Positions 13,636 through 27,680 of a stretch of DNA of 64,000 nucleotides are shown in pieces. Source of the stretch: a phage; the sequence record PV808484.1. One strand, given 5' to 3'. Every line of letters starts with the position of its first letter. Within the stretch, counting starts at the first letter, position 1. The translations under genes were made by a program, and so were the position numbers. The notes beneath the pieces are model-generated. The model was not told the origin of the DNA, searched no databases, and saw only the letters and a list, made by a program, of their open reading frames with translations.

Positions 13636-13854
13636 TATTTTGAAAATTTTTATTTTTATAAAAAGGGGTGTGGGTTTCATGTACGGAAATCCACCCTCTG
13701 AATAATATATCCAGAGTAAGTATTATTCTGTACTCTGTTAATAAATTATTTAATTTGTTTGTTGGATTATGATATCTGGTTTTTAAAAGGCATACTATCT
13801 CTTAACTACTACTTATAACAGAACAGTAAAATCATTTTTATAAAAAGGACAAAA

Positions 13855-14051
13855 TTATTTAAAGTTTTTACAGATTTTTGGGTACAAATTTTGAAAATGA
13901 AAAGTTCAAGTTTGGTCAAAATTATTTAAAGTTTTTGTACGTATTTCCATCCAGATTTTGAAAATGAAAAGTTCAATTTTTTAAAAATTCCCCAGTTTAT
14001 TTAAAGTTTTTTTGCCTTTTTCCGTAGAAAAATCAAAAATGAAAAGTTCAA
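13855..14051. repeat. three imperfect tandem repeats (~67-73 bp) with two conserved boxes
   Basis: box A TTATTTAAAGTTTTT at 13855, 13923, 13997; box B TTTTGAAAATGAAAAGTTCAA at 13889, 13956, 14031. Confidence 0.6.
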
Positions 14052-14076
14052 TTTCGTGTTTTTATAGGTATGCGTA

Positions 14077-14190
14077 TGATAATCATTCTCATTTGTAAAT
14101 GAGAATCATTATCATTTAATTATGTAAGTGATAATCATTCTCAGTAAGAGAATGAGAATCATTAGCAAATGAGAATTTTCTCATTTAGAG
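14077..14190. promoter_or_regulatory. cluster of Fur-box-like palindromes
   Basis: TGATAATCATTCTCATT, AATGAGAATCATTATCATT, GTGATAATCATTCTCAG, AATGAGAATCATTAGC; compare Fur consensus GATAATGATAATCATTATC. Confidence 0.5.
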
Positions 14191-14447
14191 AATAACGCGT
14201 AGGGGTGGTGTTTGTCTCGCGCTCCCGTGTCCCCTCGCCATACAATAAGAATAGCATAACCAACAACAAAAGCAAGCGATTATTTTTATCTTTACATTTC
14301 TTTACAAATTTATTTTAGACGAGCTACCGGCGATCAACCTTCCAACCAGTGTGCCCTGGTATGTTAGCCCCGCCTTTACGCCGTGGGGGTGGCGCTTCCT
14401 CTTCTGTATGTAAAACAGTATAAGCCCGATCCCTGGGCTTGTCAAGA

Positions 14448-14714
14448 TTATTTTTTGTTTTCTTGCCAGGATAGGACACCTAACCAAAAATACATGTCGC
14501 CCCGCGCCCCTGGCGGGATCTTGCTTTCCCCGCCGCCACTGCAAGCCCATAGATAACCATTTGCGAACGTATCAAAATGATCTATTTCTTCCACCTTATG
14601 ATCGCCCAGGTTGAGAACGGTTTCAACCTTTAAGCCCGTTGCGCTTGCTACCTGGTGCACCGTGCCGCCTTGCCAGCCTAATGAGTGCATGAGGTGTAAA
14701 GTAGTATTTGTCAT
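14448..14714 (-). CDS. hypothetical protein (88 aa) in GC-rich segment
   Basis: internal ATG (MTNTTLHLMHSLGW...) in ORF-track frame; local GC roughly 50-60 percent versus 32-42 percent elsewhere; weak SD. Confidence 0.35.
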   Translation of the reverse strand: MTNTTLHLMHSLGWQGGTVHQVASATGLKVETVLNLGDHKVEEIDHFDTFANGYLWACSGGGESKIPPGARGDMYFWLGVLSWQENKK

Positions 14715-14824
14715 GGTATCGCCCTTTCTTTGATGTGCGCCCTGGTTGGCGCGGTAGAAAGATAATAGCCCCTTTCCTTTATAGATAGCAAGCAAAAAAG
14801 AAATGAAAAAAGATTAAAAAAGGG

Positions 14825-14853
14825 TTGACGTTCCTCACCTGGTAGCGTATTAT
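14825..14853 (+). promoter_or_regulatory. sigma70-like promoter
   Basis: TTGACG-17 nt-TATTAT. Confidence 0.45.
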
Positions 14854-14980
14854 TCATCTTGTCGAGGGGGGCGAGGCACAACGACAATAAACAAAAGGAG
14901 GGCGCAATGCAGGACGGGCAAAGGTGAGGATCTCCACAATCCACCGTCACAATAACATTACTTATAAAAGGTTGATAACG

Positions 14981-15076
14981 ATGATCAAGAAAGAAAACAG
15001 CTTGACGGTTGGAACGATTAACGCTATCATTTTCGCCGTTCCATTTTGGGTTGTAGTAGCGGTTATTATCTTTTAA
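14981..15076 (+). CDS. small hydrophobic peptide (31 aa), type I toxin-like
   Basis: MIKKENSLTVGTINAIIFAVPFWVVVAVIIF; about 120 nt leader containing a 6-codon mini-ORF (MQDGQR) with AAGGAGG SD. Confidence 0.35.
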   Translation: MIKKENSLTVGTINAIIFAVPFWVVVAVIIF

Positions 15077-15084
15077 AAATATTC

Positions 15085-15141
15085 TTGACAACGTTTTTTA
15101 ATCTGATAAGATGTATCACATAGGGCGGCAATAGTGCCGCT
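15085..15141 (+). promoter_or_regulatory. promoter plus 5'-UTR hairpin cassette
   Basis: TTGACA-16-TAAGAT then CATAGGGCGGCAATAGTGCCGCTCATA. Confidence 0.55.
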
Positions 15142-15164
15142 CATAACAGAAGAGAGAAATAATC

Positions 15165-15437
15165 ATGGCATCATATAGCGCATCAATGATCGTAATGGGT
15201 ATCACTGGTAAACCTATGCGCGGTGGCGGATCTTTCGCTAACATCAATATTGATGGACGTTTATCCCTGGACGCAGCGATCACAGTGGCACGGGAAACAT
15301 TTAAAAAAGAATGTAATTTCAATAAACAAGATTATCTCGGTTTCGCTATTGAAAAAACCGCGCGATTTGTGGATTATAAAAGCCCGAAAATGATCGACAC
15401 TACACTAAAAGCGAAAGATGTAGCGTTTTTGCTTTAA
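15165..15437 (+). CDS. hypothetical protein
   Basis: 90 aa ORF downstream of cassette. Confidence 0.55.
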   Translation: MASYSASMIVMGITGKPMRGGGSFANINIDGRLSLDAAITVARETFKKECNFNKQDYLGFAIEKTARFVDYKSPKMIDTTLKAKDVAFLL

Positions 15438-15440
15438 GAC

Positions 15441-15501
15441 TTGACACTGAAAAATAATTTGGTAATATATACCACATAAGGCGGGGAAATGGTTTCCCGC
15501 C
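15441..15501 (+). promoter_or_regulatory. promoter plus 5'-UTR hairpin cassette
   Basis: TTGACA...TAATAT then GGCGGGGAAATGGTTTCCCGCC. Confidence 0.55.
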
Positions 15502-15526
15502 AAGCCATCAAAGAAAGGGTAACACA

Positions 15527-15889
15527 ATGAGCAAGCAAATCAATACTATCATGTTAAACCTGGTATCTTTCCGCGATGACGTGAAAAATCTTTCGCGTGA
15601 TGCAGTGGATGCACGGATCGAAAGCTATCGCACACAGATCGCAACATTACCGTTAAAACGTGATCAACATGCCGCTAATATGATGCTTGATGCTATGATT
15701 AAAAAGATGATTCAATGTGATCTTACTCTGGCTTATGAATATGCTGGCGATCTTTTTGTAACATATAACAAGCCCGTTCCAGGTATGAGCACCACGGAAG
15801 AATTGCATGCCTTAAATCTGCGACAAGATGCATGGGATAACATGCGCCGTGTTATGGTATGGGTAGAAAGCGGTAAAATTTACGAATAA
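15527..15889 (+). CDS. hypothetical protein
   Basis: 120 aa ORF; AAAGGG SD. Confidence 0.55.
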   Translation: MSKQINTIMLNLVSFRDDVKNLSRDAVDARIESYRTQIATLPLKRDQHAANMMLDAMIKKMIQCDLTLAYEYAGDLFVTYNKPVPGMSTTEELHALNLRQDAWDNMRRVMVWVESGKIYE

Positions 15890-15895
15890 AAACGG

Positions 15896-15950
15896 TTGAC
15901 ATTGCACTAAAACCTGATAAGCTATCTTAAAGCGGGAATAGTTCCCGCTT
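15896..15950 (+). promoter_or_regulatory. promoter plus 5'-UTR hairpin cassette
   Basis: TTGACA then AAGCGGGAATAGTTCCCGCTT. Confidence 0.5.
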
Positions 15951-15967
15951 ACATAGGATAAAACTTT

Positions 15968-16114
15968 ATGAAACAATATGTAATGAGTATTCACACCAAA
16001 AACGGCGCTACTGTTACGACTCCGGCACGGTTTGCACTTGTAAACCGTTGCAAGAGACTAAAACGAGAGCTAAAAAACAACCGTGCAACGGGCTTTAAAC
16101 GCTGGGGAGGATAA
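15968..16114 (+). CDS. small basic protein (48 aa)
   Basis: hand-translated MKQYVMSIHTKNGATVTTPARFALVNRCKRLKRELKNNRATGFKRWGG; cassette upstream. Confidence 0.4.
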   Translation: MKQYVMSIHTKNGATVTTPARFALVNRCKRLKRELKNNRATGFKRWGG

Positions 16115-16116
16115 TC

Positions 16117-16389
16117 TTGTTTTTTCTAAAAGTTTTTGATAATGTGATCGCTTTTGAACATGCTGCAACGTTCAACCTGGCGAGATACGCTATCAGGTTT
16201 AAAGATAATGTTTATCCCCGTGCTGGTGGCGGTTACACTATCTTTAATCATCGTAACGCTCAATTAACGGATATAACGAATCCAGATCCTGGAGTGTATC
16301 GCATAGGTTGGCTACCGTCAAAAGACGCGGCAAGCATGTTTAAGGTGTGTAAACTACTAACAGAAGAGGCGAACGAACATGGGGCGTGA
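16117..16389 (+). CDS. hypothetical protein (probable TTG start)
   Basis: no in-frame ATG near 5' end; GGGGAGG SD 6 nt before TTG. Confidence 0.4.
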   Translation: MFFLKVFDNVIAFEHAATFNLARYAIRFKDNVYPRAGGGYTIFNHRNAQLTDITNPDPGVYRIGWLPSKDAASMFKVCKLLTEEANEHGA

Positions 16390-16933
16390 ATATGTGATCC
16401 AGTCCTGGGTAAAGCATGATGCTGATGATCCGCGCATAATACCAGATGACATGATCGATCACATGGTAGGGTATAGCGGGGAGCAGATAGGAAATCGAGC
16501 GGCAAAGAGCAACGGTCACACAAAAACGCGATCCGTTCGCCCTGGTTGGCTGGCAAATGGTAACGCTGACATTGCAAGCGCCGCAGATCCAAGCGATGAC
16601 GCTAAAAATAATCCCTTATACAGCATTGATCCGGCTTTTAAGGTGTTAGAAGAGTATCCCGCTAAATTAGCCGCACTAGATAAAGCATATGAAGAAAAGC
16701 GCATGGCATGGACGGTATACAACACCGCTAAAATGGTGCTAGATGCAAAATTGATTAAAGCCCAGGAGAAGATCAATAAACTTGTTACCATAGCGCAAGA
16801 GGAAGACCAGGACGACCAGGAGGAAGAGGAAGAAATCATGCCTACCCTGGAAGAGGAAGAGATCCAGCCATACATGCCGACGGAAGAGGAAAAAAGACAA
16901 GCCCTAAAAAATTATGAAAATTGTGTTGTGTAA
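16379..16933 (+). CDS. hypothetical protein with acidic C-terminus
   Basis: 184 aa; ATG overlaps upstream stop; EEDQDDQEEEEE tract. Confidence 0.5.
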   Translation: MGREYVIQSWVKHDADDPRIIPDDMIDHMVGYSGEQIGNRAAKSNGHTKTRSVRPGWLANGNADIASAADPSDDAKNNPLYSIDPAFKVLEEYPAKLAALDKAYEEKRMAWTVYNTAKMVLDAKLIKAQEKINKLVTIAQEEDQDDQEEEEEIMPTLEEEEIQPYMPTEEEKRQALKNYENCVV

Positions 16934-16936
16934 GGC

Positions 16937-17042
16937 TTGACATATGCAAACAAGCCCCGTAATATGTACCACATAAAGCGGGGCAACGCCCCATAAGGTG
17001 AAATAAAAAATCACTTGACACCTGAAATCAGTAAGCTATAAT
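16937..17042 (+). promoter_or_regulatory. tandem promoters, first with 5' hairpin
   Basis: TTGACA-17-TAATAT then AAGCGGGGCAACGCCCCAT; second TTGACA-16-TATAAT. Confidence 0.5.
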
Positions 17043-17079
17043 GCTTATATAGATTGAAACATTACTAAGGAATAAAAGC

Positions 17080-17259
17080 ATGGCTATTATTGCAAAGACT
17101 GAGATCGTAGGTTTAGATTCTATCATCCTGGCATATGAGGAAGCTATAGAAATGTATGTGGTTTCCTATGGTGATTATATCCGTGAATATAAATCTATTG
17201 ATCTAGCTTTTGAATGCTATATTCGCCAGGTCAATAAAGCCTATGATGATTATCGTTAA
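17080..17259 (+). CDS. small protein (59 aa)
   Basis: hand-translated MAIIAKTEIVGLDSIILAYEEAIEMYVVSYGDYIREYKSIDLAFECYIRQVNKAYDDYR. Confidence 0.4.
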   Translation: MAIIAKTEIVGLDSIILAYEEAIEMYVVSYGDYIREYKSIDLAFECYIRQVNKAYDDYR

Positions 17260-17354
17260 AAGTTTTAGTCTTGTGCTATTGACAACGAACGATAGTGCAA
17301 GCATAATAACTTTTATCGGGAATACTCCTAACTAATCAAAAGAGATTAAAGACT

Positions 17355-17720
17355 ATGGCTAAAAATATCAATGTTTCTGCTTATGCTACCCTGGCTAACA
17401 CTGCTAAAATTGAACTATCCAGCATTGAAGCGGTACATATTAGCGCCCGTCGCTGGTTTCAAAAGTCTTATGGTAACACTTATTTCTCTTTGATGGTTGA
17501 CGTTGAGATCGGCGGTAAACTGATTGAAGTCGTTAACGTTCCGTTTCACTATGGCTACGGGGATCATTTTGATACCGTTGCCCTAGAAGAGTTTAGCAAG
17601 GTTATCAACCTGGAAGGTAAAGAATTTTCAAATTATGCCTACCTTTCCCGTTTTTGCCGTGATAATGGGATCGCTGTATACAGTCATGCAAGCGATGTTA
17701 AACGTAAAAAAGATTTATAA
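17355..17720 (+). CDS. hypothetical protein
   Basis: 121 aa ORF; TTGACA-type promoter about 17280. Confidence 0.55.
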   Translation: MAKNINVSAYATLANTAKIELSSIEAVHISARRWFQKSYGNTYFSLMVDVEIGGKLIEVVNVPFHYGYGDHFDTVALEEFSKVINLEGKEFSNYAYLSRFCRDNGIAVYSHASDVKRKKDL

Positions 17721-17726
17721 AAAGCA

Positions 17727-17754
17727 TTGACAGCACGAATAAAAAGCGTAAAAT
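17727..17754 (+). promoter_or_regulatory. sigma70-like promoter with no ORF directly downstream
   Basis: TTGACA-16-TAAAAT; followed by about 85 nt structured noncoding sequence. Confidence 0.4.
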
Positions 17755-17840
17755 GTTTCATATCAGGACGGGGAACGAAGTAACACCCCGTTAAGTAGCC
17801 CAGGAGTAAGACACACGAAAAACTCCCCTGATAAAATAGT

Positions 17841-17901
17841 TTGACAATGGTTTCTAATAACGTATAATACTTACATCGAGAGCGGGAACACTTCCCGCCT
17901 C
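17841..17901 (+). promoter_or_regulatory. promoter plus 5'-UTR hairpin cassette
   Basis: TTGACA-16-TATAAT then AGCGGGAACACTTCCCGCC. Confidence 0.55.
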
Positions 17902-17923
17902 ACTGAAAAAAGAGATTAACATC

Positions 17924-18163
17924 ATGGCTAAATCTAAAATGTTCTTAGGTCACAAAAACAAAACTCATTGGAATGTAAGCCTTTGGATCAACAACGATGA
18001 AGGTTTTTATAATCTTGCGCGTGAATTTATCGCAGCTAACACCAATAAGAATGACGCAGCGCGTGATATGATGTTATTTCTTGAAAGTATGGATCAAGAT
18101 AAAACGCCAGACGGATTCAAGTTCAGTAAAACCGCGATCCGTGCCGCTATGGTTGGAATGTAA
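17924..18163 (+). CDS. hypothetical protein
   Basis: 79 aa ORF. Confidence 0.55.
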   Translation: MAKSKMFLGHKNKTHWNVSLWINNDEGFYNLAREFIAANTNKNDAARDMMLFLESMDQDKTPDGFKFSKTAIRAAMVGM

Positions 18164-18258
18164 AGGAGACATAAAAATGAAACATCGTTCGACCTATCTC
18201 ACAAAACGTTTTAGCTTAGATCATAAATTGGGCTATTACGGAAGAAATAGAAAATAAT

Positions 18259-18318
18259 TTGACAACGTTTTAAATTAGTGTAAGATATATCACATAGGGC
18301 GGGAAATGGTTTCCCGCC
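18259..18318 (+). promoter_or_regulatory. promoter plus 5'-UTR hairpin cassette
   Basis: TTGACAACGTTTT...TAAGAT then GGGCGGGAAATGGTTTCCCGCC. Confidence 0.55.
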
Positions 18319-18340
18319 AAATCAAAGAAAGGTTATCATT

Positions 18341-18568
18341 ATGGCTATCATTATTGTTCGCGTATCCGGTACGGTTGGAAGCTCCCAGGTAGTAGCAGTT
18401 ATCACAGAGAAGAAAGGGGATGATCTTCACTCTTCCTTGAATAGTTGGGCGGTCGCTAATTTTGGTCAGTGGTCGAGCGTCGAGTATATCGAATCCTACC
18501 AGGTGCCGACGATTAGCCTAACCGATTTAAATGTTGATCGCTTGTTGTGCCTGGATGGATTAAACTAA
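18341..18568 (+). CDS. hypothetical protein
   Basis: 75 aa ORF. Confidence 0.55.
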   Translation: MAIIIVRVSGTVGSSQVVAVITEKKGDDLHSSLNSWAVANFGQWSSVEYIESYQVPTISLTDLNVDRLLCLDGLN

Positions 18569-18576
18569 AAATAATC

Positions 18577-18633
18577 TTGACAAGATAACTAAAATCAGTA
18601 AAATGTAATGCATAGGGCGGCAATAGTGCCGCT
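18577..18633 (+). promoter_or_regulatory. promoter plus 5'-UTR hairpin cassette
   Basis: TTGACA-16-TAAAAT then CATAGGGCGGCAATAGTGCCGCTCATA. Confidence 0.55.
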
Positions 18634-18655
18634 CATAGTAAGAGAGATTATCAAA

Positions 18656-18871
18656 ATGGCTAATATCCGCACACTGTTAAAAAATGCAAGTCAAGTTTTA
18701 TTTTCAGATGACGAGTATTTCAACAAAGACATTACAGGCGTGAAAAATTTAAAAGACGTGAAGGATGTTATCGGTATCCGTGGATCTTTACGTAAAGGTG
18801 ACATATACGGTAACAAGGTGCAATATAAACTGTCAAAAGATTATGATTTTACTTTGACAATTATCAATTAA
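18656..18871 (+). CDS. hypothetical protein
   Basis: start at internal ATG (MANIRT) downstream of cassette. Confidence 0.5.
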   Translation: MANIRTLLKNASQVLFSDDEYFNKDITGVKNLKDVKDVIGIRGSLRKGDIYGNKVQYKLSKDYDFTLTIIN

Positions 18872-18882
18872 GGGATCACAAA

Positions 18883-19041
18883 ATGAAAACTTGCCAATGT
18901 GGTAAAAAGTCTATCTCTGGTTTAAAACGTGGCGTTGCTCTTTGTCAATATCACTATAACGCTCAAACGTGGGGTAAGCAGTGGGCGGATCAGATGGAAG
19001 AGGCAAAGAAAGAAAATATAAAAGTAGTTGCAAAGAAATAA
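18883..19041 (+). CDS. small Cys-containing protein (52 aa)
   Basis: hand-translated MKTCQCGKKSISGLKRGVALCQYHYNAQTWGKQWADQMEEAKKENIKVVAKK. Confidence 0.4.
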   Translation: MKTCQCGKKSISGLKRGVALCQYHYNAQTWGKQWADQMEEAKKENIKVVAKK

Positions 19042-19112
19042 AAATAAAGTAAACTGTATTCATCAAGGCGGTGGAATAGCCCACCGCCTAACAAAGAGAA
19101 GAGGAAAACATC

Positions 19113-19283
19113 ATGATCACTTTCGCTACCCGTGAAGCCGCTCGCAACGTTGCACGTAAAGTTAACGCCGCCAACCTGGGCGCTACGTTTAAAGCCCCGG
19201 TGAAAGATGAGTCAGGAAAATGGATCTTCCCTGGTCTGCGTCACGCTGATAAGCTGGGAACATTAACGTTAAAAAATAAATAA
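19113..19283 (+). CDS. small protein (56 aa)
   Basis: hand-translated MITFATREAARNVARKV...; preceded by hairpin GGCGGTGGAATAGCCCACCGCC. Confidence 0.4.
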   Translation: MITFATREAARNVARKVNAANLGATFKAPVKDESGKWIFPGLRHADKLGTLTLKNK

Positions 19284-19290
19284 GATCCGC

Positions 19291-19349
19291 TTGACAGTAG
19301 CATGATTTATAAGTAAAGTAACAACAACGGCGGGAAATGGTTTCCCGCC
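19291..19349 (+). promoter_or_regulatory. promoter plus 5'-UTR hairpin cassette
   Basis: TTGACA-17-TAAAGT then GGCGGGAAATGGTTTCCCGCC. Confidence 0.55.
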
Positions 19350-19369
19350 ATCAATAAAGAGATAAGATT

Positions 19370-19729
19370 ATGAAATCAGTAAAAGCAATCAAAACTTACA
19401 TTGTATCGGCTATTTCTTTTGAAGGTACTACAACCGAAAAAGAAAAAATCACCGAACTGATGCGCCGTTTTAATTCTGAATACTGGTATCCCGATAATCA
19501 AAAACGTTACAATTATAACGTGATCAAGGCGATAGCCTCATGGTTACAAGGTTTACCGTCAGACATTAACATCGCCTTTGATTATAACGAGATCGATCAC
19601 TTGTTAATTGAATGGAAGTACATAAAAGAAACAAGCAAAGAAACAACCGTTACCCGTGAGCGGGAAAATTATTGGTTATATATTGCAAGCATGATCGTAA
19701 TCCTGGCAAAACAGCATAACGTGGCGTAA
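19370..19729 (+). CDS. hypothetical protein
   Basis: 119 aa ORF. Confidence 0.55.
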   Translation: MKSVKAIKTYIVSAISFEGTTTEKEKITELMRRFNSEYWYPDNQKRYNYNVIKAIASWLQGLPSDINIAFDYNEIDHLLIEWKYIKETSKETTVTRERENYWLYIASMIVILAKQHNVA

Positions 19730-19743
19730 TTAAGAGGAAGAAA

Positions 19744-19881
19744 CATGAACGCATCACAGCAGATCGAAAAATTCAACCGCAGCAAGGCGCGTAAAGATTG
19801 GAACGAAGAGATCACCAAAAAAGGCGACAAGCGGAACAAAACAAAAAGAGATCGCAGCACAAAAAGACACTGGAACGAATA
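19744..19881 (+). CDS. small basic protein (45 aa)
   Basis: hand-translated MNASQQIEKFNRSKARKDWNEEITKKGDKRNKTKRDRSTKRHWNE; terminator follows. Confidence 0.35.
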
Positions 19882-19887
19882 ACAAAA

Positions 19888-19910
19888 AAGGGCGCAATAA
19901 GCGCCCTTTT
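19888..19910 (+). terminator. rho-independent terminator
   Basis: AGGGCGC-AATAA-GCGCCCT then TTTTA. Confidence 0.6.
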
Positions 19911-20000
19911 AGCTTATATAGAGGCTTGTTACCCATAGGCAATGGTAACGCCAGGGCAAGCCTATAAACAACGTTAGACGGCTTTACAGGAGCTTTAAAA

Positions 20001-20183
20001 ATGAGATTAGAAGAAATAAGCAAGGCACTAGCCCAGGGGCAAAGGTTATGCGCCAGATATCGTGATCAATATGGCTTCATAACTAGCGGCGTGATCCTGG
20101 GGATTGAAGGCAATAAGATTTTTATTGACACGTTGAAAAACGTTGTATATAGTGACAATATAATCTCAATAAAACATATATGA
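20001..20183 (+). CDS. hypothetical protein
   Basis: 60 aa ORF. Confidence 0.45.
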   Translation: MRLEEISKALAQGQRLCARYRDQYGFITSGVILGIEGNKIFIDTLKNVVYSDNIISIKHI

Positions 20184-20593
20184 GGCAAGAAATGAAAAAC
20201 TTATTGATCGCTGGTTTACTCTCTTTTGGTATGGTTGGAACATCTAGCGCGGCGATATCCTCCACAGTAGCAGAATTAAGCGCCGTTGATGCAATGGAAA
20301 ACGTCATGCTTATTAATAATGCGATCCCCGATGAAATCATGGAGGATTCACACATGATCGCTTATGGTGCTGTTACACAACTAACGGCAAAAATAGATAA
20401 ATCTATTGTTAATGGCTTAAATGAAGATGTACCATGTGAAATTATTACCAGTGTGCTTACTACTCAAAATTTTACGCCGTGGTTAAAAAGTATTCAAAAA
20501 GTACACAGTACAGCCGCAGATCGTAGCAATGAAAAACTAGTGTCAGCACTTGCAACGTATACCCTAGCAAAATGCACCGAGATAAAAGATTGA
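20180..20593 (+). CDS. predicted secreted protein
   Basis: N-terminal KNLLIAGLLSFGMVGTSSA signal-peptide-like segment. Confidence 0.5.
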   Translation: MRQEMKNLLIAGLLSFGMVGTSSAAISSTVAELSAVDAMENVMLINNAIPDEIMEDSHMIAYGAVTQLTAKIDKSIVNGLNEDVPCEIITSVLTTQNFTPWLKSIQKVHSTAADRSNEKLVSALATYTLAKCTEIKD

Positions 20594-20616
20594 CAACATA
20601 GAAAGCACGTTATAAG
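20590..20616 (+). promoter_or_regulatory. sigma70-like promoter
   Basis: TTGACA-15-TATAAG, then AAGGAG SD. Confidence 0.45.
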
Positions 20617-20640
20617 ATACACACAACAAAGGAGAACTAC

Positions 20641-20943
20641 ATGAACGGCATAGCTAAAACGTTTTTTCTTTTTTCTGGTGTAAATGATCCATCAATAAAA
20701 GTCGATAGTGTAAAAGAAAACAATACTATCACCGCTAAATTGTTTCAAGATGAAACAAATAACGTGCTAATCATTAATCTTAAAGAAATAACTAAAGGTT
20801 ATTATACTATTGCTTACCATGCAATCTATCATGCTGGTACTAGTGAGGAAGTGCAAACAAGCAACAACGAAAGCGCGGCGCTACCTGGTGATCTGGTGCT
20901 GGGCGTTATCAGTTTAATTGTCAATGATTTTTTTAAGGAGTAA
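20641..20943 (+). CDS. hypothetical protein
   Basis: 100 aa ORF. Confidence 0.55.
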   Translation: MNGIAKTFFLFSGVNDPSIKVDSVKENNTITAKLFQDETNNVLIINLKEITKGYYTIAYHAIYHAGTSEEVQTSNNESAALPGDLVLGVISLIVNDFFKE

Positions 20944-20947
20944 AACC

Positions 20948-21043
20948 ATGCCCTATTTACATTTATTTTTCGGTATCTTATTGACAGGATCTTTTTTCTT
21001 CTGTATGCTTGTTTCTATTGTAAACCACGTTTTAAGACATTAA
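20948..21043 (+). CDS. small hydrophobic peptide (31 aa)
   Basis: MPYLHLFFGILLTGSFFFCMLVSIVNHVLRH. Confidence 0.3.
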   Translation: MPYLHLFFGILLTGSFFFCMLVSIVNHVLRH

Positions 21044-21052
21044 GGAAACAGC

Positions 21053-21172
21053 ATGAAAATTATTCCCGTACAATATAGCGTAATAAATCCAGCATACGAG
21101 GAAGGAAGGAAAACAAGCATGGCTTTATGTTGTATTGCTACTATAGCCATGTTGTTATGCATTGTGTTTTAA
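21053..21172 (+). CDS. small hydrophobic peptide (39 aa)
   Basis: MKIIPVQYSVINPAYEEGRKTSMALCCIATIAMLLCIVF. Confidence 0.3.
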   Translation: MKIIPVQYSVINPAYEEGRKTSMALCCIATIAMLLCIVF

Positions 21173-21272
21173 TAGGTTTTATAGTTGTACGCTTTAAAGG
21201 CTTGACAATTTTTTGTTATGCTTTAAACTATATCTTGAAAACGGCAAAGGCCGCAAACAAAAGGGTAAAATT

Positions 21273-21596
21273 ATGAAATCTGTGATCGGTGTTTATTTGG
21301 ATAACTCTGATTTTTTCTATCATCGCGCTCGTTTCCTTGATGCGATTGAAATGATAGAATCAGGCTTTAAAGAGTATCGCCTTGCACATGATGACCTGGA
21401 AGCATTACAGGGCAATAGTGTTTTTACATTGCAAGCTAAAGCACTATGCAAAAGCCGGATCGACATTGCGAGCAAAAAGATAGAACGCGGCATGTCCTGG
21501 TTGCGCACCGCAGAAATCAACATGGGGCAATGGTACGGCGAAAACTTAGAAAATAAACATGCTTTTGTCAATGTAGAAAATATTGAAGATTATTGA
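21273..21596 (+). CDS. hypothetical protein
   Basis: start at internal ATG (MKSVIG) after AAAGGG SD. Confidence 0.5.
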   Translation: MKSVIGVYLDNSDFFYHRARFLDAIEMIESGFKEYRLAHDDLEALQGNSVFTLQAKALCKSRIDIASKKIERGMSWLRTAEINMGQWYGENLENKHAFVNVENIEDY

Positions 21597-21658
21597 TTGA
21601 CAGCACACCTAACGGGTAGTATATTGTATCTCATAGAGCGGGGAAATGGTTTCCCCGC
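21597..21658 (+). promoter_or_regulatory. promoter plus 5'-UTR hairpin cassette
   Basis: TTGACA-17-TATATT then GCGGGGAAATGGTTTCCCCGC. Confidence 0.55.
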
Positions 21659-21678
21659 CATCAATAAAGAGATAAGCT

Positions 21679-21963
21679 ATGAAGATCACAAAAGCACTTT
21701 CCAACTATGCAGCACGTCGCGGATTATGTTTAACCGTTGAAAATTTAGGGAAAGAAGATTTTTTGTGCTTTTGGGAGCTTGAGAATGATAATGAGTGGAT
21801 CTTCTCTTATTCTATCTGCGAAGATCAAAACGGTTGTTTATTAACCTGGCGCGGTAATATCTATCTACCGGAAGAAATCAAAGAAGAATTACCAGGCACG
21901 ATCATGACTGAGAAACAGCTTAAGGAAGTGATCAATTTTGTAGGGCAAAACATTAAAAAATAA
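21679..21963 (+). CDS. hypothetical protein
   Basis: 94 aa ORF. Confidence 0.55.
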   Translation: MKITKALSNYAARRGLCLTVENLGKEDFLCFWELENDNEWIFSYSICEDQNGCLLTWRGNIYLPEEIKEELPGTIMTEKQLKEVINFVGQNIKK

Positions 21964-21964
21964 T

Positions 21965-22022
21965 TTGACAGCAGAAAAACAACGTAGTAAAGTTTATCAC
22001 ATAGGGCGGCAATAGTGCCGCT
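21965..22022 (+). promoter_or_regulatory. promoter plus 5'-UTR hairpin cassette
   Basis: TTGACA-17-TAAAGT then CATAGGGCGGCAATAGTGCCGCTCATA. Confidence 0.55.
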
Positions 22023-22044
22023 CATAACAGAAGAGAAACAAATC

Positions 22045-22215
22045 ATGATCCCGACTATGTTTTATGTATCGCGCAAAGGTCACAATATTTTTTGGTCTGA
22101 AGATTTAAATGAAGCCATGACGTTTGCCCGTGATCGTGTTGCTATCGGTGGCGTTAACATTACTGTAACCGATGAAAATGGCATTGAATACTATAACGGC
22201 GACGATGAAGAGTAA
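22045..22215 (+). CDS. small protein (56 aa)
   Basis: start at ATG (MIPTMF) downstream of cassette. Confidence 0.45.
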   Translation: MIPTMFYVSRKGHNIFWSEDLNEAMTFARDRVAIGGVNITVTDENGIEYYNGDDEE

Positions 22216-22260
22216 TTAACAAGGCGGGGAGTATTCCCGCCGTCAATAAAGGATAATATC

Positions 22261-22398
22261 ATGAAAACTTTCAACGCAACAGCATCAACAATTGGTTATA
22301 TTATCACCGTGCAAGCTATTGATCTAGTAGCTGCAACAAACAAGATTAAAAACATGATCCCTGTAGGCAGTGATTTTTCCGTTTGGGAAGTAAAATAA
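22261..22398 (+). CDS. small protein (45 aa)
   Basis: MKTFNATASTIGYIITVQAIDLVAATNKIKNMIPVGSDFSVWEVK; hairpin GGCGGGGAGTATTCCCGCC upstream. Confidence 0.35.
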   Translation: MKTFNATASTIGYIITVQAIDLVAATNKIKNMIPVGSDFSVWEVK

Positions 22399-22401
22399 AT
22401 C

Positions 22402-22463
22402 TTGACAGTGATTTGTTATTTGATAAGATGTACTACGTAGGGCGTGGCAATAAGGCAACGCCC
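22402..22463 (+). promoter_or_regulatory. promoter plus 5'-UTR hairpin cassette
   Basis: TTGACA-17-TAAGAT then GGGCGTGGCAATAAGGCAACGCCC. Confidence 0.5.
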
Positions 22464-22484
22464 CACATCAGAAAGGGAAAGATT

Positions 22485-22721
22485 ATGACTATAGCAACAG
22501 TATTAACCGCCGTTAAAACCGCCGAATCATCCGGCTTGCATGTTGAGATTATAGATCAACCAGGTGGCGATCTCCTTGTCCAGGTTTACCCGCCGAAAGT
22601 AGGGGATGATTATTATTGGTGCTATTCTGATACGTTCGAACAAGTAGACACGAAAGCGATCACGGCTTTTATTTTAAAAGCTATTGAAGAAAATAACTTT
22701 CATTATAACATCAATCAATAA
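22485..22721 (+). CDS. hypothetical protein
   Basis: start at internal ATG (MTIATV) after AAAGGG SD. Confidence 0.5.
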   Translation: MTIATVLTAVKTAESSGLHVEIIDQPGGDLLVQVYPPKVGDDYYWCYSDTFEQVDTKAITAFILKAIEENNFHYNINQ

Positions 22722-22763
22722 ACCATAAGCGGGGCAGTAACGCCCACTAATGAGGGTAAAATC

Positions 22764-22868
22764 ATGTTAGAGAAAATTTTCACGGTTGTAGTAGTGGGCC
22801 TGGCGTTATCGGTTGGAGTGGTTGCAACTATGGCTAACATGATTCTATCTTCTCACGGTATTGGATAA
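22764..22868 (+). CDS. small hydrophobic peptide (34 aa)
   Basis: MLEKIFTVVVVGLALSVGVVATMANMILSSHGIG. Confidence 0.3.
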   Translation: MLEKIFTVVVVGLALSVGVVATMANMILSSHGIG

Positions 22869-22878
22869 GGTGAATCAA

Positions 22879-23094
22879 ATGATCACGAATAAGACAGGTA
22901 AAACAGAATTTTTACGCGGCTTGCAAATAGGTAAACCTGAGATCTGGCATTGCACTAAATCCGCGCATAATGAAATGAAAGATTTTACCGCTACTTTACA
23001 ACGTGTTAAAATATCTATCACACAGAAAAAAGCCTTGTTAGTAGTAGAAAACGAGATCCCGCAAACTATTATTATTGTCGAGCGTACAGCATGA
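22879..23094 (+). CDS. hypothetical protein
   Basis: ATG (MITNKTG) with AAGGTG SD. Confidence 0.5.
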   Translation: MITNKTGKTEFLRGLQIGKPEIWHCTKSAHNEMKDFTATLQRVKISITQKKALLVVENEIPQTIIIVERTA

Positions 23095-23477
23095 AAACAG
23101 AAATCATTATTGAAATCATCAACGGTTATAAAGAAGCCTTTATTTTTGCTGAATCCGCCAGGGATCATGAAGGTAATTTTATTGATAACTTGACTGATTA
23201 TGATTTTTCAGATCAAGCCCATCAGCGGATCATTCATGACGTAGCGGCTTATTGTGATGCCAATGATGCCGCTATCTCTGAGGCAATGAGCGACGGCGCA
23301 ACAGCCAACCAGATCGGGAATGATTTACATTTTACCCGTAATAGTCACGGCGTAGGCTTTTGGGATCGCCCTGAAATATACACTACTAACACCGCCAACC
23401 GCTTAACTAATGCAGCTAAATTGATGCCATCGGTGCATGCTTACATTGGTGAAGATAATTTGATTTATATTGAATAA
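23091..23477 (+). CDS. hypothetical protein
   Basis: 128 aa ORF; ATGA overlap. Confidence 0.55.
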   Translation: MKTEIIIEIINGYKEAFIFAESARDHEGNFIDNLTDYDFSDQAHQRIIHDVAAYCDANDAAISEAMSDGATANQIGNDLHFTRNSHGVGFWDRPEIYTTNTANRLTNAAKLMPSVHAYIGEDNLIYIE

Positions 23478-23483
23478 AAAGTA

Positions 23484-23542
23484 TTGACACCGATCCCCAA
23501 TATGGTACTATTTACCACGTAGGCGGGAAATGGTTTCCCGCC
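23484..23542 (+). promoter_or_regulatory. promoter plus 5'-UTR hairpin cassette
   Basis: TTGACA then GGCGGGAAATGGTTTCCCGCC. Confidence 0.55.
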
Positions 23543-23565
23543 AGGTAATCAAAAAGGTAAATACT

Positions 23566-23955
23566 ATGCGCAACCTGGTTTCTGTTTCTAACGTTGAAAA
23601 ATTTCAATCTTTACAGGGTATCGTTAACAACGTAGCGCCTTTTTTAGTCAACGGCTTGATTGCAAAGATGAAAAATAAACATCATGCGGCATGGTCTGCT
23701 TACTGCTTTGATAATGATGAAAAAGCGGCTGAAATGATGTTAAATATGCTGTTAGACAGTGTAGAATCATCTTTACCGGAAAACATCGCAGAAGAGATCA
23801 CCTATCGTTATAATATGGCGATCACTTACCAGGAGGTTGCGCAATTTAATATGATGGACGATGACGAACAACAGGATCAGGAAATTTTCTGGGAGTATGC
23901 AGATCGTCAATCGGCTTTTGATGAAAAGTTAGCGATGTATTATAACGAATATTAA
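23566..23955 (+). CDS. hypothetical protein
   Basis: start at internal ATG (MRNLVS). Confidence 0.5.
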   Translation: MRNLVSVSNVEKFQSLQGIVNNVAPFLVNGLIAKMKNKHHAAWSAYCFDNDEKAAEMMLNMLLDSVESSLPENIAEEITYRYNMAITYQEVAQFNMMDDDEQQDQEIFWEYADRQSAFDEKLAMYYNEY

Positions 23956-23970
23956 TACACGGTAAAAGAA

Positions 23971-23997
23971 AGGGGCGCACTAAGCGCCCTTTTTTGT
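23971..23997 (+). terminator. rho-independent terminator
   Basis: GGGCGC-ACTAA-GCGCCC then TTTTTTG. Confidence 0.7.
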
Positions 23998-24341
23998 ATT
24001 CTTTTTTCACAATGGAAGCGACACGTAAAGAATAGGCGTAAAAGGTGGCGTAAAACCATCTAAAACCGACTGTAACCGCTTAAACAAGGCAGGGATGATT
24101 AATCCCCTTACCAGGATGAAAAAGCTGTTAGAGAGCTATTCATAGCGTTTAAAGCACATAGGAAATAATTTGCTTTTTATCTTGCCTTTTATCCTGCTTT
24201 TGATTATTATTATGGAACGGGCGGCACCTGGGGACAGGGGAAGATAATCACCGGAAGATCCCGCTATATATTGATAGCTAATACCTATTAAACAACAAAA
24301 CATCAAAGGGATAAACTATCAAATCTTTACAATCCTACCTA

Positions 24342-24400
24342 TTGACACACGATCACCCTTATACTAATATGTATCCCGTAGGCGGGAAATGGTTTCCCGC
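24342..24400 (+). promoter_or_regulatory. promoter plus 5'-UTR hairpin cassette
   Basis: TTGACA-17-TAATAT then GGCGGGAAATGGTTTCCCGC. Confidence 0.55.
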
Positions 24401-24419
24401 TTGATATAGGAATCATACC

Positions 24420-24650
24420 ATGATCGAACAAATTAAAAGCACTCAAAATGTTAACGGCAATGTGTTCCACTTTATCGGCAATAAAGGAAAAGGCGTACCC
24501 TACGCCGCCGTAACCGTGCAACCTAATGGCGATTATTGGTTTACCGTGTACGGATCATACTCTTTCGGACGCCCGGCACATGATAAGATCTTGCAAGCGG
24601 TTAAACCTGCGGGGAAGAATATTACAGCAGAAAAATTTTATAAAAAATAG
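24420..24650 (+). CDS. hypothetical protein
   Basis: 76 aa ORF. Confidence 0.55.
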   Translation: MIEQIKSTQNVNGNVFHFIGNKGKGVPYAAVTVQPNGDYWFTVYGSYSFGRPAHDKILQAVKPAGKNITAEKFYKK

Positions 24651-24725
24651 CTTGCTTTATTTCTTCTGTTAACTTATAGTTATCGCGTAGGGCAAACAAT
24701 TTTAAACGGTAGACGAGGAATCACC

Positions 24726-25109
24726 ATGAGCAATATCATCAACCTGGCAGCGACTGTAAACGGTAAAGACTTTAACGGCGCTGTAGACCGTGATCCTATG
24801 TGGTGCTTATCAGTGTTTAAAGGCGATCTGGTTGAAGTTAGAACAACCGAAGGGTATAGCGATGATTATAAATGCGAGATCCATTTACATAACTGGTACA
24901 CGGGGAAAACTTATGCGCTGAATCACGCGTTTATCGGGAAAATTGAATATCGCGAGATGATCGACGATGAAACGGGGCAAGATTTTAGTGATTATGTTTA
25001 TATTCGTTCAGAAACATTAGCCGAACGTTTGATCGAGAAAATGAAAGCAAAAAATAAAATTAATTTAGCTCATTGGCTTGATATAACAAATGATCCGGCT
25101 TACAAGTAA
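24726..25109 (+). CDS. hypothetical protein
   Basis: 127 aa ORF; GAGG SD. Confidence 0.55.
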   Translation: MSNIINLAATVNGKDFNGAVDRDPMWCLSVFKGDLVEVRTTEGYSDDYKCEIHLHNWYTGKTYALNHAFIGKIEYREMIDDETGQDFSDYVYIRSETLAERLIEKMKAKNKINLAHWLDITNDPAYK

Positions 25110-25124
25110 ATAACATTTCATACC

Positions 25125-25150
25125 AGGGCGCACAAAGCGCCCTTTCTTTT
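25125..25150 (+). terminator. rho-independent terminator
   Basis: AGGGCGC-ACAAA-GCGCCCT then TTCTTTTT. Confidence 0.65.
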
Positions 25151-25357
25151 TACCTAAATAAAGATGATAGCTTTTACCTATCAAAAACATTCACCGAAAA
25201 AAGTGAATAGATCGCGGTATCGAGCTAATCAAGGAGCAGATGAACAACCATACCATGAAGATCATAAGGCGCTTACAACGTGTTTTAAACCGCTTATTTT
25301 TAATTTCTCCATGTAACTATCTGGCAAAAACAGCCTTTTTCGTGTCTTTCCTCTTAA

Positions 25358-25430
25358 GTGATAATCATTCTTATTTATAGCTGATTATTTATGCAATAAA
25401 CTGCATAATGCAATAATGATAATCATTCTT
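25358..25430. promoter_or_regulatory. Fur-box-like palindromes
   Basis: GTGATAATCATTCTTA and AATAATGATAATCATTCTT; the latter 16/19 to Fur consensus. Confidence 0.5.
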
Positions 25431-25440
25431 AACTTATGAC

Positions 25441-25790
25441 CATCTAACCTATAAAATAATAAGTTATCTAACTAAATTAAAGCTAATTATTTCACCTTTA
25501 TTTATAACTTACTGTTACTATCTCATTGATAACCTTATATTAAACAACAATAACTAATATAAATCATTACTAAGCTAAATATAATCTATCTAACCTTTAA
25601 AACTATAACTATAATCTATCGAATTGTTGCACAAAGTAACTATTAAATTGTTAGTAACATTACTAAATAATTCATATCCTATCTATTTATGATCTAATCT
25701 TTACTTTCCTATCTATTACCTAAATAATCCTATCATACAGTTACCATTTCATGTAATAATCATTTCATACAATAACTATAACAAGAAATA
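25441..25790. repeat. G-depleted AT-rich low-complexity tract
   Basis: about 4 percent G on plus strand; degenerate ATCTATC / CTAACCT motifs. Confidence 0.55.
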
Positions 25791-25808
25791 TAATTCGCAA
25801 GCGTATCA

Positions 25809-27609: not shown

Positions 27610-27680
27610 AAATGTCTGTACACTGTGTTCCATAAGATATGCAATATCGCGCATAACAAAACTACTAATGAGAGGTGTAA

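Follow-up and report, generated by a model that had tools for sequence, protein, structure and literature searches.

Is the small-gene block at 14200-25150 of this phage DNA an imported island or a resident part of the phage? The initial annotation of the 64,000-nucleotide stretch analysed here (the window; sequence record PV808484.1) read the block as a horizontally acquired or recombinationally mobile accessory module. The window belongs to a phi92-like myovirus (Justusliebigvirus) with 97% identity to Escherichia phage EmilieFrey/Bas61; the block alone is 97.2% identical to EmilieFrey (Bas61) over 100% of its length, and its synteny is kept in phi92 (gp224-gp248), Paula, outra, muut, and PATM. 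The annotated 343-bp direct terminal repeat of phi92 has its equivalent at 26224-26566 (98% identity), corresponding to the physical genome ends. This places the gene array in about the final 12 kb of the linear genome, some 1.1 kb to the inner side of the repeat. The block probably represents the early, host-takeover region of this phi92-like virulent myovirus, situated a short way in from the right end of the linear genome and composed mostly of self-contained promoter units, hyperplastic yet stably inherited.

The compositional difference of the block is real and is strongest in the codons; its description as compositionally distinct holds in a qualified sense. The block has 40.0% GC compared to 36.7% for the rest of the window, which is the top of all same-length windows (312 non-overlapping windows span 36.1-38.1%). 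The values given earlier, 45-60 percent inside and 32-42 percent in the flanks, are nevertheless wrong: 60-nt stretches inside the block have a median of 40% GC (5th-95th percentile 28-53%), and 29% of them have at least 45% GC, vs. 10-12% in the flanks. Peaks occur only at about 14250-14900 and 16000-17000, with 46-48% GC in 500-nt windows and up to 50% in 300-nt windows. GC3 is 0.394 in the block genes and 0.284 elsewhere (per-gene Mann-Whitney p about 1e-9); gene by gene the shift exceeds z = 1.5 in 24 of 27 genes, and it sets in abruptly on the left, between 13635 and 14448. Relative synonymous codon usage (RSCU) in the block correlates with that of 42 real E. coli K-12 genes at r = 0.55, compared to -0.00 to 0.10 for the four other blocks of the window and a maximum of 0.18 over 1000 random 27-gene sets. 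Codons read by tRNAs of the phage, which encodes 14 of its own, are weakly depleted in the block (0.41 vs. 0.45, p = 0.04). Sigma70-like promoters are present in the adjacent block of small genes (26873-39500) as well, but the codons there are not host-like (r = 0.08), indicating that promoter type alone is insufficient for the codon shift.

The compositional signal could in principle be a trivial by-product of GC-rich hairpins and two GC-rich genes, the coding sequences being otherwise ordinary. The restriction of the GC peaks to two places would agree with this, as would the intergenic GC of the block, which is 40% owing to stem-loops. However, when both peaks are taken out, the block genes keep a GC3 of 0.383 vs. 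0.284 as well as a difference in per-gene GC (p = 0.004), and the RSCU pattern is specific, with CGC, CCG, GGC, ATC, AGC, and ACC up and AGA, CCT/CCA, AGT, and ATT down. These codon-level tests refute the by-product explanation, to which we assign practically no probability.

Import of the whole block as a unit from a GC-richer donor, with insertion between two copies of a 17-bp direct repeat, would explain why GC and GC3 exceed those of the flanks, why an exact 17-mer is found on both sides (14125 and 25355), and why the borders are AT-rich. The AT-rich tracts are indeed present at both borders, at 13640-14199 (25% GC) and 25151-26800 (31% GC), and both are noncoding. However, every Justusliebigvirus genome examined carries the block at this locus, as does Phapecoctavirus, rV5 has an architecturally equivalent array, and the block matches more phage records than the neighbouring 11.5 kb (290 vs. 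122). A promoter-dense array with host-like codons is found at the matching locus of phi92-likes, phAPEC8-likes, and rV5, and the codon shift is common to arrays of differing gene content; the RSCU correlation with the host in array vs. elsewhere is 0.60 vs. 0.09 in ESCO37 and 0.72 vs. 0.24 in rV5. No integrase or transposase was detected among 30 window proteins scanned in Pfam (28 of them from the block) or among 20 scanned in PHROGs; a search of E. coli genomes, limited to the GC-rich left end (14170-14800), gave no match. The 17-mer is exact on both sides as annotated, yet it is no unique pair, as it represents two of eight position-conserved Fur-box-like sites. The conserved locus, the eight-site family, and the lack of recombinase genes already largely refute horizontal acquisition of the block, which is very improbable. 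Judged from these comparisons, the block is a normal, long-standing part of the phage family and not a recent import, with single genes being exchanged.

The left tract lies between a NADAR-family gene (13084-13635) and the array. It contains three direct repeats of about 70-79 nt with 72-73% identity (13834-14054), followed by a tandem array of four Fur-box-like palindromes with the core TGATAATCATTCTCA (14072-14190; at 14077, 14100, 14129, and 14153) that includes the left 17-mer (14125-14141). The right tract carries the other sites at 25355-25373 (the right 17-mer), 25412-25431, 26297-26316, and 26492-26511. The eight copies are confined to the two tracts, two of them lie inside the terminal repeat, and their positions are conserved in relatives. 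By its sequence, the 17-mer is a member of an operator-like motif family and not an island border. Next to the Fur boxes lies a conserved noncoding unit on the minus strand (14190-14445), a candidate ncRNA that is also conserved in relatives. It opens with a sigma70-type promoter, TTGACA-17-TATACT (14445-14417), with a hairpin in the promoter spacer, followed by a near-invariant domain of ~95 nt (about 14410-14316), TTTGTAAAGAAATGTAAAGA, and a GC-rich domain adjoining the Fur boxes; a comparison of the unit with Rfam gave no match. Fur boxes and noncoding unit are side leads of this analysis.

The block consists of about 32 tiny genes, most of which have their own host-type promoter cassette. 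The leftmost gene (14448-14714, minus strand, 49% GC) encodes an 88-aa protein that is 99-100% identical across phi92-like and phAPEC8-like phages; its predicted fold is confident (pLDDT 94), and a structural search gave no match. Its cassette (14715-14790, minus strand) has a promoter-like TTGCTA-18-TATTAT, a 5' stem-loop GCGCC..GGCGC, and a Shine-Dalgarno sequence. The remaining genes form a plus-strand array of 31 small ORFs (14981-25109; 31-184 aa, median about 75) with host-like codons. Only three of these have Pfam matches, namely to DUF7249 (17924-18163), the T7 gp1.1 family (19745-19882), and the T4 gp30.8 family (24726-25109), and all 20 proteins scanned in PHROGs belong to phage-only families of unknown function.

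The dominant repeat of the block is a cassette of ~85 nt that precedes 12-13 of the small genes: a TTGACA promoter leads into a GC stem-loop, located where the transcript is predicted to begin, and then come a ribosome-binding site and the start codon. In a typical unit, a near-consensus sigma70 promoter is followed by the stem-loop, a purine-rich Shine-Dalgarno sequence, and an ATG about 80 nt past the -35 hexamer. This cassette had been overlooked in the initial annotation. The block contains 21 TTGAC-N16-18-TAnnnT sites, all on the plus strand (14825 to 24342), which gives a density of 1.9 per kb compared to 0.7 per kb for both strands of the rest of the window. By alignment, 13 promoters form one family, with cassettes 70-100% identical to each other. 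With transcription starts predicted 7 nt after the -10 hexamer, 12 of the 21 promoters have a hairpin starting at +2 to +9 (-10.8 to -15.6 kcal/mol), compared to 2 of 37 elsewhere in the window (Fisher p = 2e-5); 11 of these 12 hairpins have -14 kcal/mol or lower and start at +2 to +7, while eight or nine of the 21 promoters lack one. A conserved CAYRTAGG leader precedes the stem-loop, and exact stem sequences recur three and four times, confined to the block. The hairpins have no downstream U-run and are thus not classical terminators. At the corresponding loci of relatives, a hairpin follows 11 of 20 promoters in phi92, 17 of 24 in ESCO37, and 2 of 14 in rV5; the ESCO37 stems differ in sequence with the pairing kept.

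The first plus-strand promoter, TTGACG-17-TATTAT (14825-14980), has a long leader and no stem-loop. Cassettes with promoter and 5' stem-loop follow on the same strand at 15085-15164 (stem GGGCGGCAATAGTGCCGCTC), 15441-15526 (CGGGGAAATGGTTTCCCGC), 18259-18340 (GCGGGAAATGGTTTCCCGC), 18577-18655 (GGGCGGCAATAGTGCCGCTC), 19291-19369 (GCGGGAAATGGTTTCCCGC), 21597-21678, 21965-22044 (GGGCGGCAATAGTGCCGCTC), 22402-22484, 23484-23562, and 24342-24419. In the cassette at 23484, the annotated start at 23530 falls in the hairpin loop, so the true start is likely 23563. Two tandem promoters (16937-17079), one with a stem-loop at 16937 and one with the consensus TTGACA-16-TATAAT at 17015, precede the gene at 17080, and two tandem promoter and stem-loop cassettes (17727 and 17841) occupy 17727-17923, one of which is missing in several relatives. 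Four promoters without stem-loop (20125, 20590, 20981, and 21202; 20125-21272, plus strand) are located within upstream ORFs or at their ends. Terminator hairpins are found at 19889-19907 (AGGGCGC-AATAA-GCGCCCT, flanked by A and T runs and bidirectional, after the gene ending at 19882), 23972-23990 (GGGGCGC-ACTAA-GCGCCCT, then a T run), and 25125-25143 (plus strand, AGGGCGC-ACAAA-GCGCCCT, then a T run), the last closing the array. The proposed terminator family AGGGCGC-N5-GCGCCCT is therefore exact at 19889 and 25125, has one mismatch at 23972, and occurs nowhere else in the window, but it is a minor feature: the block has about 20 GC-rich hairpins, and the family accounts for just three of them.

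In a presence/absence matrix, close relatives differ in which of the small genes they carry, with individual genes present, missing, or replaced. Of 26 breakpoints, 14 fall in cassettes, which make up 20% of the block (p = 1e-4), and 20 lie outside gene interiors. The notion of a recombinationally mobile module thus holds for single genes, which are swapped with breakpoints at promoter cassettes, but not for the whole block, which stays at one locus. Continuing gene flow out of GC-richer relatives (rV5-like and other coliphages) into this recombination-prone region might then have produced the codon and GC shift instead of selection for host-like translation. Some array proteins share 87-95% identity with homologues in rV5, where no match to the flanking genes was detected, the rV5 array has a GC3 of 0.475, six array genes are common to the jumbo phage A4 (Asteriusvirus), and the breakpoints sit at cassettes. 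However, the A4 locus has 37.6% GC, the 24 of 27 shifted genes include genes without rV5 homologue, and the rV5 and ESCO37 arrays exceed their own flanks in host-likeness, so that donor composition merely relocates the question. Gene flow could account for part of the codon shift; as its full explanation it is unlikely.

For a resident early, host-takeover region, the following sequence of events can be proposed. Once the DNA enters the cell, unmodified host RNA polymerase would fire all array promoters; early timing is suggested by promoter type and analogy, and the searched literature yielded no expression data for the phi92-like phage group. The 5'-terminal hairpins would shield the short mRNAs against the 5'-end-dependent decay pathway of RNase E and RppH, and they may also attenuate read-through from upstream units, a few of which end in an intrinsic terminator. 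E. coli mRNA is reportedly stabilised by a 5' hairpin. Host-like synonymous codons, presumably under selection, would provide efficient translation by the host tRNA pool, ahead of the phage's own tRNAs and AT-rich codon regime. The repeated cassettes could double as sites of homologous recombination, by which genes would be gained, lost, and swapped between co-infecting relatives, making the region hyperplastic while the block as such is stably inherited.

Several known systems resemble parts of this arrangement. The host-takeover module of Bacillus phage SPO1 is said to lie in the terminal redundancy, and T7 and T5 are said to have comparable early or pre-early regions. Genes of these regions are the first to be expressed, and most are dispensable or directed at the host; for the array, early timing is a prediction. 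Like the SPO1 module, the array groups about two dozen small genes near one end of the genome, and their host-type promoters and ribosome-binding sites are unusually strong. However, the SPO1 and T5 genes lie inside a long terminal repeat, in contrast to the short repeat here with the array to its inner side, and apart from the T7 gp1.1 and T4 gp30.8 relatives there are no homologues in common.

A codon-usage partition is also said to exist in T4. As in the early vs. late partition of phages (Mioduser et al., 2017, PMC5683454), one gene class is nearer to host codons than the rest of the genome in a tRNA-carrying phage. The partition here is unusually sharp and local, with one 11-kb block set apart from all others, including the other small-gene block with sigma70-type promoters, and it is conserved across three genera. 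The same architecture of a small-ORF region and a noncoding gap is described in passages of the rV5 paper (Kropinski et al., 2013, PMC3606486), which report 88 mainly small ORFs, a 2.6-kb ORF-free stretch, rho-independent terminators, and a large number of sigma70-type promoters. These passages do not mention promoter/stem-loop cassettes, a local codon shift, Fur-type operators, or a conserved noncoding unit, and of the 14 rV5 promoters just two belong to a stem-loop cassette, vs. 12 of 21 here.

T4-type phages provide a close parallel with their PeSL (promoter-early stem-loop) cassettes, which lie in hyperplastic regions (Arbiol et al., 2010, PMC2839356; Comeau et al., 2014, PMC4122927) and for which the searched literature holds no report outside the T4-likes. 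In both systems, a composite motif is repeated that combines an AT-rich upstream region and a consensus sigma70 promoter with a GC-rich stem-loop, a Shine-Dalgarno sequence, and an ATG. The motifs are concentrated among small genes of unknown function and bound the insertions, deletions, and replacements between close relatives, and one PeSL subclass also places the stem-loop 3' of the -10 hexamer. The lineages differ (Stephanstirmvirinae here, Straboviridae for the PeSL phages), and the cassettes have no sequence similarity to published PeSLs. Unlike in PeSLs, the stem-loop here has a nearly fixed position: it follows the CAYRTAGG leader at the predicted transcript 5' end, and it has no U-run. 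For PeSLs, terminator activity of one stem-loop and mini-circle formation have been shown. By analogy, the best reading is that the block works like the PeSL regions of T4-type phages, as a hyperplastic early, host-takeover region.

Together with its surroundings, the small-gene array at 14200-25150 (hereafter the block) is 97.2% identical to Escherichia phage EmilieFrey (Bas61) over 100% of the query. About 290 further phage records match the block, mostly from Justusliebigvirus and Phapecoctavirus (Stephanstirmvirinae), against 122 for the next 11.5 kb. In phi92 numbering the block corresponds to gp224-gp248, the last genes on the linear map. Window positions 26224-26566 are the counterpart (98% identity) of the annotated 343-bp right direct terminal repeat of phi92, so that the block takes up about the final 12 kb of the linear map and the physical genome ends fall within the right AT-rich tract (25151-26800). 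The GenBank records of many relatives begin or end at most about 1 kb from 26224-26566. The block holds 31 plus-strand open reading frames (31-184 aa) and one minus-strand gene, all of them intact. Pfam matches are restricted to DUF7249, the T7 gp1.1 family and the T4 gp30.8 family, and all 20 block proteins tested are assigned to phage-only PHROGs of unknown function.

The initial annotation had taken the block for a compositionally distinct island, with 45-60% GC inside and 32-42% in the flanks. The block is indeed distinct, but the size of the difference was overstated. Its GC content is 40.0% against 36.7% in the rest, the highest among all windows of the same length with the peak exactly at 14201, while 60-nt stretches inside it have a median of 40% GC and only 29% of them reach 45%. 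High GC is limited to 14250-14900 and 16000-17000 (46-48% in 500-nt windows and at most 50% in 300-nt windows). A tRNA array behind these peaks was considered and rejected (ARAGORN, no tRNA genes in the window), as was the idea that the GC-rich left end came from the host (5,426 E. coli genomes gave no match). The tracts on both sides are AT-rich as described, with 25% GC on the left (13640-14199) and 31% on the right.

The compositional difference is mainly one of codon usage. With a simple ORF call (131 genes in the window), the GC3 of block genes is 0.394 versus 0.284 elsewhere (per-gene p ~1e-9), a rise of 11 points compared to 3.3 points in overall GC; GC1 is slightly lower and GC2 equal, and the GC3 shift persists when both GC peaks are taken out. 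The relative synonymous codon usage (RSCU) pattern is the block's own; compared with 42 real E. coli K-12 genes it gives a correlation of r = 0.55, versus -0.00 to 0.10 for the four other blocks of the window, and in 1000 random sets of 27 non-block genes r never exceeded 0.18. CGC, CCG, GGC, ATC, AGC, ACC and GCG/GCC are raised, and AGA, CCT/CCA, AGT, ATT and ACA are lowered. The per-gene host-likeness score is up (z > 1.5) in 24 of 27 block genes and jumps abruptly between the NADAR-family gene, which ends at 13635, and the first block gene. This departure is also kept in the arrays of relatives: array and flank correlate with host usage at r = 0.60 and 0.09 in the Phapecoctavirus ESCO37 and at 0.72 and 0.24 in rV5 (Vequintavirinae), as calculated with an E. 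coli codon table that agreed with the real gene set on the blocks of the window. Selection tied to expression class best accounts for this conserved and sharply localised likeness to host codon usage, a concept already known for phages (PMC5683454). Gene flow may contribute in part to the shift. A tie to the 14 tRNAs of the phage is weakly supported, the A-ending codons that they read being weakly depleted (p = 0.04), and the tRNAs were rejected as the cause of the shift. The next plus-strand small-gene block (26873-39500) also has TTGACA promoters, less densely spaced. Its codons do not follow host usage (r = 0.08), so it probably represents a different expression class.

Horizontal acquisition of the block as an island is contradicted by its distribution, its gene content and the conservation of its composition in relatives. 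Seven loci were compared, six from Justusliebigvirus and one from Phapecoctavirus, and in all seven the block lies at the same place, with the NADAR-family gene on one side and the terminal AT-rich tract on the other. A sporadic distribution with empty sites was not seen in these loci, where only single genes vary. No integrase, transposase or recombinase was found by Pfam among 30 proteins of the window (28 from the island) or by PHROG among 20 proteins. The 17-bp direct repeat that had been proposed to bound the island does occur exactly at 14125 and 25355, but it belongs to an eight-member palindromic family that is spread across both tracts, and it is not an insertion-type direct repeat (att site or target-site duplication) unique to the borders.

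Most block genes share 90-100% protein identity among the Justusliebigvirus loci, while single genes are absent or replaced as a patchwork. Among the loci compared, the gene at 18883-19041 occurs only in EmilieFrey and outra, that at 22261-22398 only in EmilieFrey and ESCO37, and that at 22485-22721 only in EmilieFrey, phi92 and ESCO37; muut lacks three genes between 14981 and 15889. In rV5, an array of its own with 31 small genes is followed by a 2.5-kb gap, both already described for rV5 (PMC3606486), and about seven of its genes are recognisably common to the array of the window. Nineteen records labelled 'Campylobacter phage' also match the block, and three of these (MG065645, MG065689 and MG065639; ~146 kb, host given as C. 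jejuni) are ~94% identical to this coliphage over the block. Their host assignment looks doubtful.

The block contains 21 sigma70-type promoters (TTGAC-N16-18-TAnnnT), of which 19 carry an exact TTGACA -35 element; every one lies on the plus strand between 14825 and 24342. Their density is 1.9 per kb, compared with 0.7 per kb in the remainder of the window, where both strands were counted. Thirteen of the 21 align as one intergenic cassette of ~85 nt with the order TTGACA, N16/17, TAAnAT, (g)TAtCACATAGG, GC stem-loop, A/G-rich Shine-Dalgarno sequence and an ATG at +79 to +86. When each sequence is folded separately from the predicted start, 12 of the 21 promoters show a hairpin that begins at +2 to +9 and has an energy of -10.8 to -15.6 kcal/mol (at most -14 kcal/mol, with a beginning at +2 to +7, in 11 of these 12). 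Of 37 promoters elsewhere in the window, only 2 have a comparable hairpin (Fisher p = 2e-5). Alignment of the 13 cassettes with MAFFT followed by RNAalifold under-called the hairpin because the loop lengths differ. Two stem sequences recur and are confined to the block, GCGGGAAATGGTTTCCCGC with four exact copies and one variant, and GGGCGGCAATAGTGCCGCTC with three exact copies. The cassette hairpins are not followed by a U-run, and they form the dominant hairpin family of the block. The terminator family AGGGCGC-N5-GCGCCCT, which had been assigned to the island, is present three times and nowhere else in the window, though one copy has a mismatch; these are ordinary 3' terminators behind the genes ending at 19882, 23955 and 25109.

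At the left end, the 88-aa gene on the minus strand has the same cassette design in front of it, in opposite orientation. Far from the block, a site at 60821 on the minus strand also has this design, with TTGACT-17-TAGTAT, a 5' stem-loop and a AAAGAGAGAAGGAG Shine-Dalgarno sequence. At 23530-23562 the start that relatives' annotations assign to the gene at 23530-23955 falls in the loop of a cassette hairpin, and the cassette geometry together with the PHROG profile points to 23563 as the true start. A small-gene array is also present in the unrelated 355-kb jumbo Escherichia phage A4 (Asteriusvirus; 4293-11380 in that genome), where six homologues of block genes with 60-90% amino acid identity occur in a different order; stem-loop cassettes were sought in the A4 array and none were found.

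Promoter density is maintained among relatives, with ~20 promoters in each array of the phi92-like phages and ESCO37 and 14 in that of rV5. In the phi92 locus 11 of 20 promoters come with stem-loop cassettes, as do 17 of 24 in the ESCO37 locus and only 2 of 14 in rV5. The stems of ESCO37 have another sequence with the pairing kept. When the window is compared with its relatives, the same breakpoint positions come up repeatedly; cassettes make up 20% of the block and contain 14 of the 26 breakpoints (p = 1e-4), and 20 of the 26 avoid the interiors of genes. Cassettes from different positions cross-match each other at 76-80%, which makes them plausible substrates for homologous exchange, and recombination between them would drive the shuffling of genes. 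The suggestion of a recombinationally mobile accessory module is thus borne out for single genes at the level of the cassette, but not for the block as a unit. The block is the lineage's own, probably early, gene region, hyperplastic per gene cassette, and not an imported island. A trait of the early, host RNA polymerase-dependent gene class, near-consensus sigma70 promoters ahead of the genes, is present at 21 sites (19 with exact TTGACA), and the block genes are presumably expressed early, with the 5' hairpin possibly stabilising their mRNA. A search of the literature for a transcriptome of this phage group returned nothing relevant.

The two copies of the 17-mer belong to a motif family with the core TGATAATCATTCTCA, at most one mismatch away from the 7-1-7 inverted repeat of the Fur box. 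Fur boxes are described by the 19-bp consensus GATAATGATAATCATTATC or by the 7-1-7 inverted repeat TGATAATnATTATCA (as cited in PMC4506495). With up to three mismatches to the 19-mer, four sites are found versus 0.03 expected, and with up to two mismatches to the 7-1-7 motif there are nine in the window versus 0.86 expected, eight in the AT-rich tracts and one, unrelated, elsewhere. The best site agrees with the E. coli consensus at 17 of 19 positions. Four sites lie in tandem in the left tract (~14072-14190), two in the right tract at 25355 and 25412 (25355-25431), and two inside the terminal repeat (26297-26316 and 26492-26511). Seven sites (up to four mismatches to the 19-mer) hold their positions in five of the six Justusliebigvirus loci, and outra retains six. 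In rV5, Fur-type boxes stand at the head of its own array. Five other genera also have a Fur-type box at the start of the early array, and in several genera it occupies the spacer of a promoter-like site, TTGAAT-N18-CAGAAT. A comparison with E. coli genomes, meant to show whether the boxes resemble real Fur sites, was uninformative, the short matches being swamped by the size of the database, and the literature searched contained nothing relevant on Fur boxes in virulent phages.

Next to the left sites lies a candidate conserved noncoding unit (14190-14445, putatively on the minus strand), which is absent from rV5 and present in Mydovirus, Certrevirus and Seunavirus, where a Fur-type box adjoins it too. 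Within it, 14289-14414 retains ~84% nucleotide identity in distant genera, mostly as unannotated intergenic DNA. The spacer of a conserved minus-strand sigma70 promoter contains a hairpin, and behind this promoter come, in order, a near-invariant ~95-nt domain, the TGTAAAGA doublet, a domain rich in GC and the Fur-type box. Rfam gave no matches in the whole window at gathering thresholds, and nothing meaningful for 14150-14500 at E-values up to 10. The stability of the single-sequence fold of 14280-14412 is not unusual (z = -0.8), and RNAalifold on 15 sequences gave 16 pairs with one covarying, the sequence being nearly invariant. Elsewhere in the tracts, three direct repeats of ~70-79 nt at 13834-14054 adjoin the Fur-type boxes in the left tract and could be origin iterons or phage-specific promoters. 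The right noncoding tract is densely palindromic at 25800-25990, with several local hairpins and perfect 15-nt inverted arms (25837-25851 and 25968-25982), and this stretch is ~81% conserved in ESCO37.

One reading, which we regard as speculative and rather unlikely, is that the array borders form an iron-sensing control region with Fur-bound operators and a new family of phage noncoding RNA. Host Fur would then occupy all eight conserved operators, among them a tandem of four beside the left-border unit and a pair in the terminal repeat at the physical genome ends. The first phage transcription would thereby depend on the cell's iron status, and so, possibly, would the start of replication at the adjacent AT-rich repeats. 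In another version, phage DNA might titrate Fur as it multiplies, so that host iron uptake would be derepressed. Under either version of the iron-sensing reading, the ~95-nt domain transcribed from the promoter at 14445-14417 would represent a noncoding RNA family of the Stephanstirmvirinae and several genera of the Vequintavirinae. Putative Fur-type operators in the terminal repeat and near the noncoding unit provide a lead on the question of whether a virulent phage reads the iron status of its host.

The block, for all its foreign look, is thus the family's own, probably early, gene region, and its apparent border repeat is a putative regulatory motif. Host-like codon usage can stay in one sharply bounded expression block across genera despite the turnover of genes, and the pattern of cassettes and codons offers a simple sequence signature to find immediate-early host-takeover genes in unannotated phages; such genes may serve in anti-defence or host shutoff. 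Among described systems, the nearest counterpart is found in T4-type phages, in their hyperplastic region rich in promoter-early stem-loop (PeSL) cassettes (PMC2839356, PMC4122927). As in these regions, a sigma70 promoter with an adjacent stable stem-loop, a Shine-Dalgarno sequence and an ATG is repeated between genes, the cassettes preferentially accompany small genes that have no known function and cluster in a variable region, and insertions, deletions and replacements between close relatives are bounded by cassettes. All sequence-level defining features of PeSL regions are thus present in the block. On the functional side, PeSLs are also defined by promoters active in vivo, by stem-loops that terminate or attenuate transcription, and by mini-circles arising through recombination between cassettes. 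Nothing relevant on PeSLs outside the T4-like phages turned up in the literature searched, and PeSL-like cassettes, known to date from T4-type phages only, would also organise and shuffle the early genes of phi92-like and phAPEC8-like phages, therapeutic coliphages of a group unrelated to the T4-type. PeSLs were defined in the Straboviridae, whereas this genome belongs to the Stephanstirmvirinae; given this lineage and the matching sequence-level features, the block is best described as a region that works like the PeSL regions and not as a member of them.
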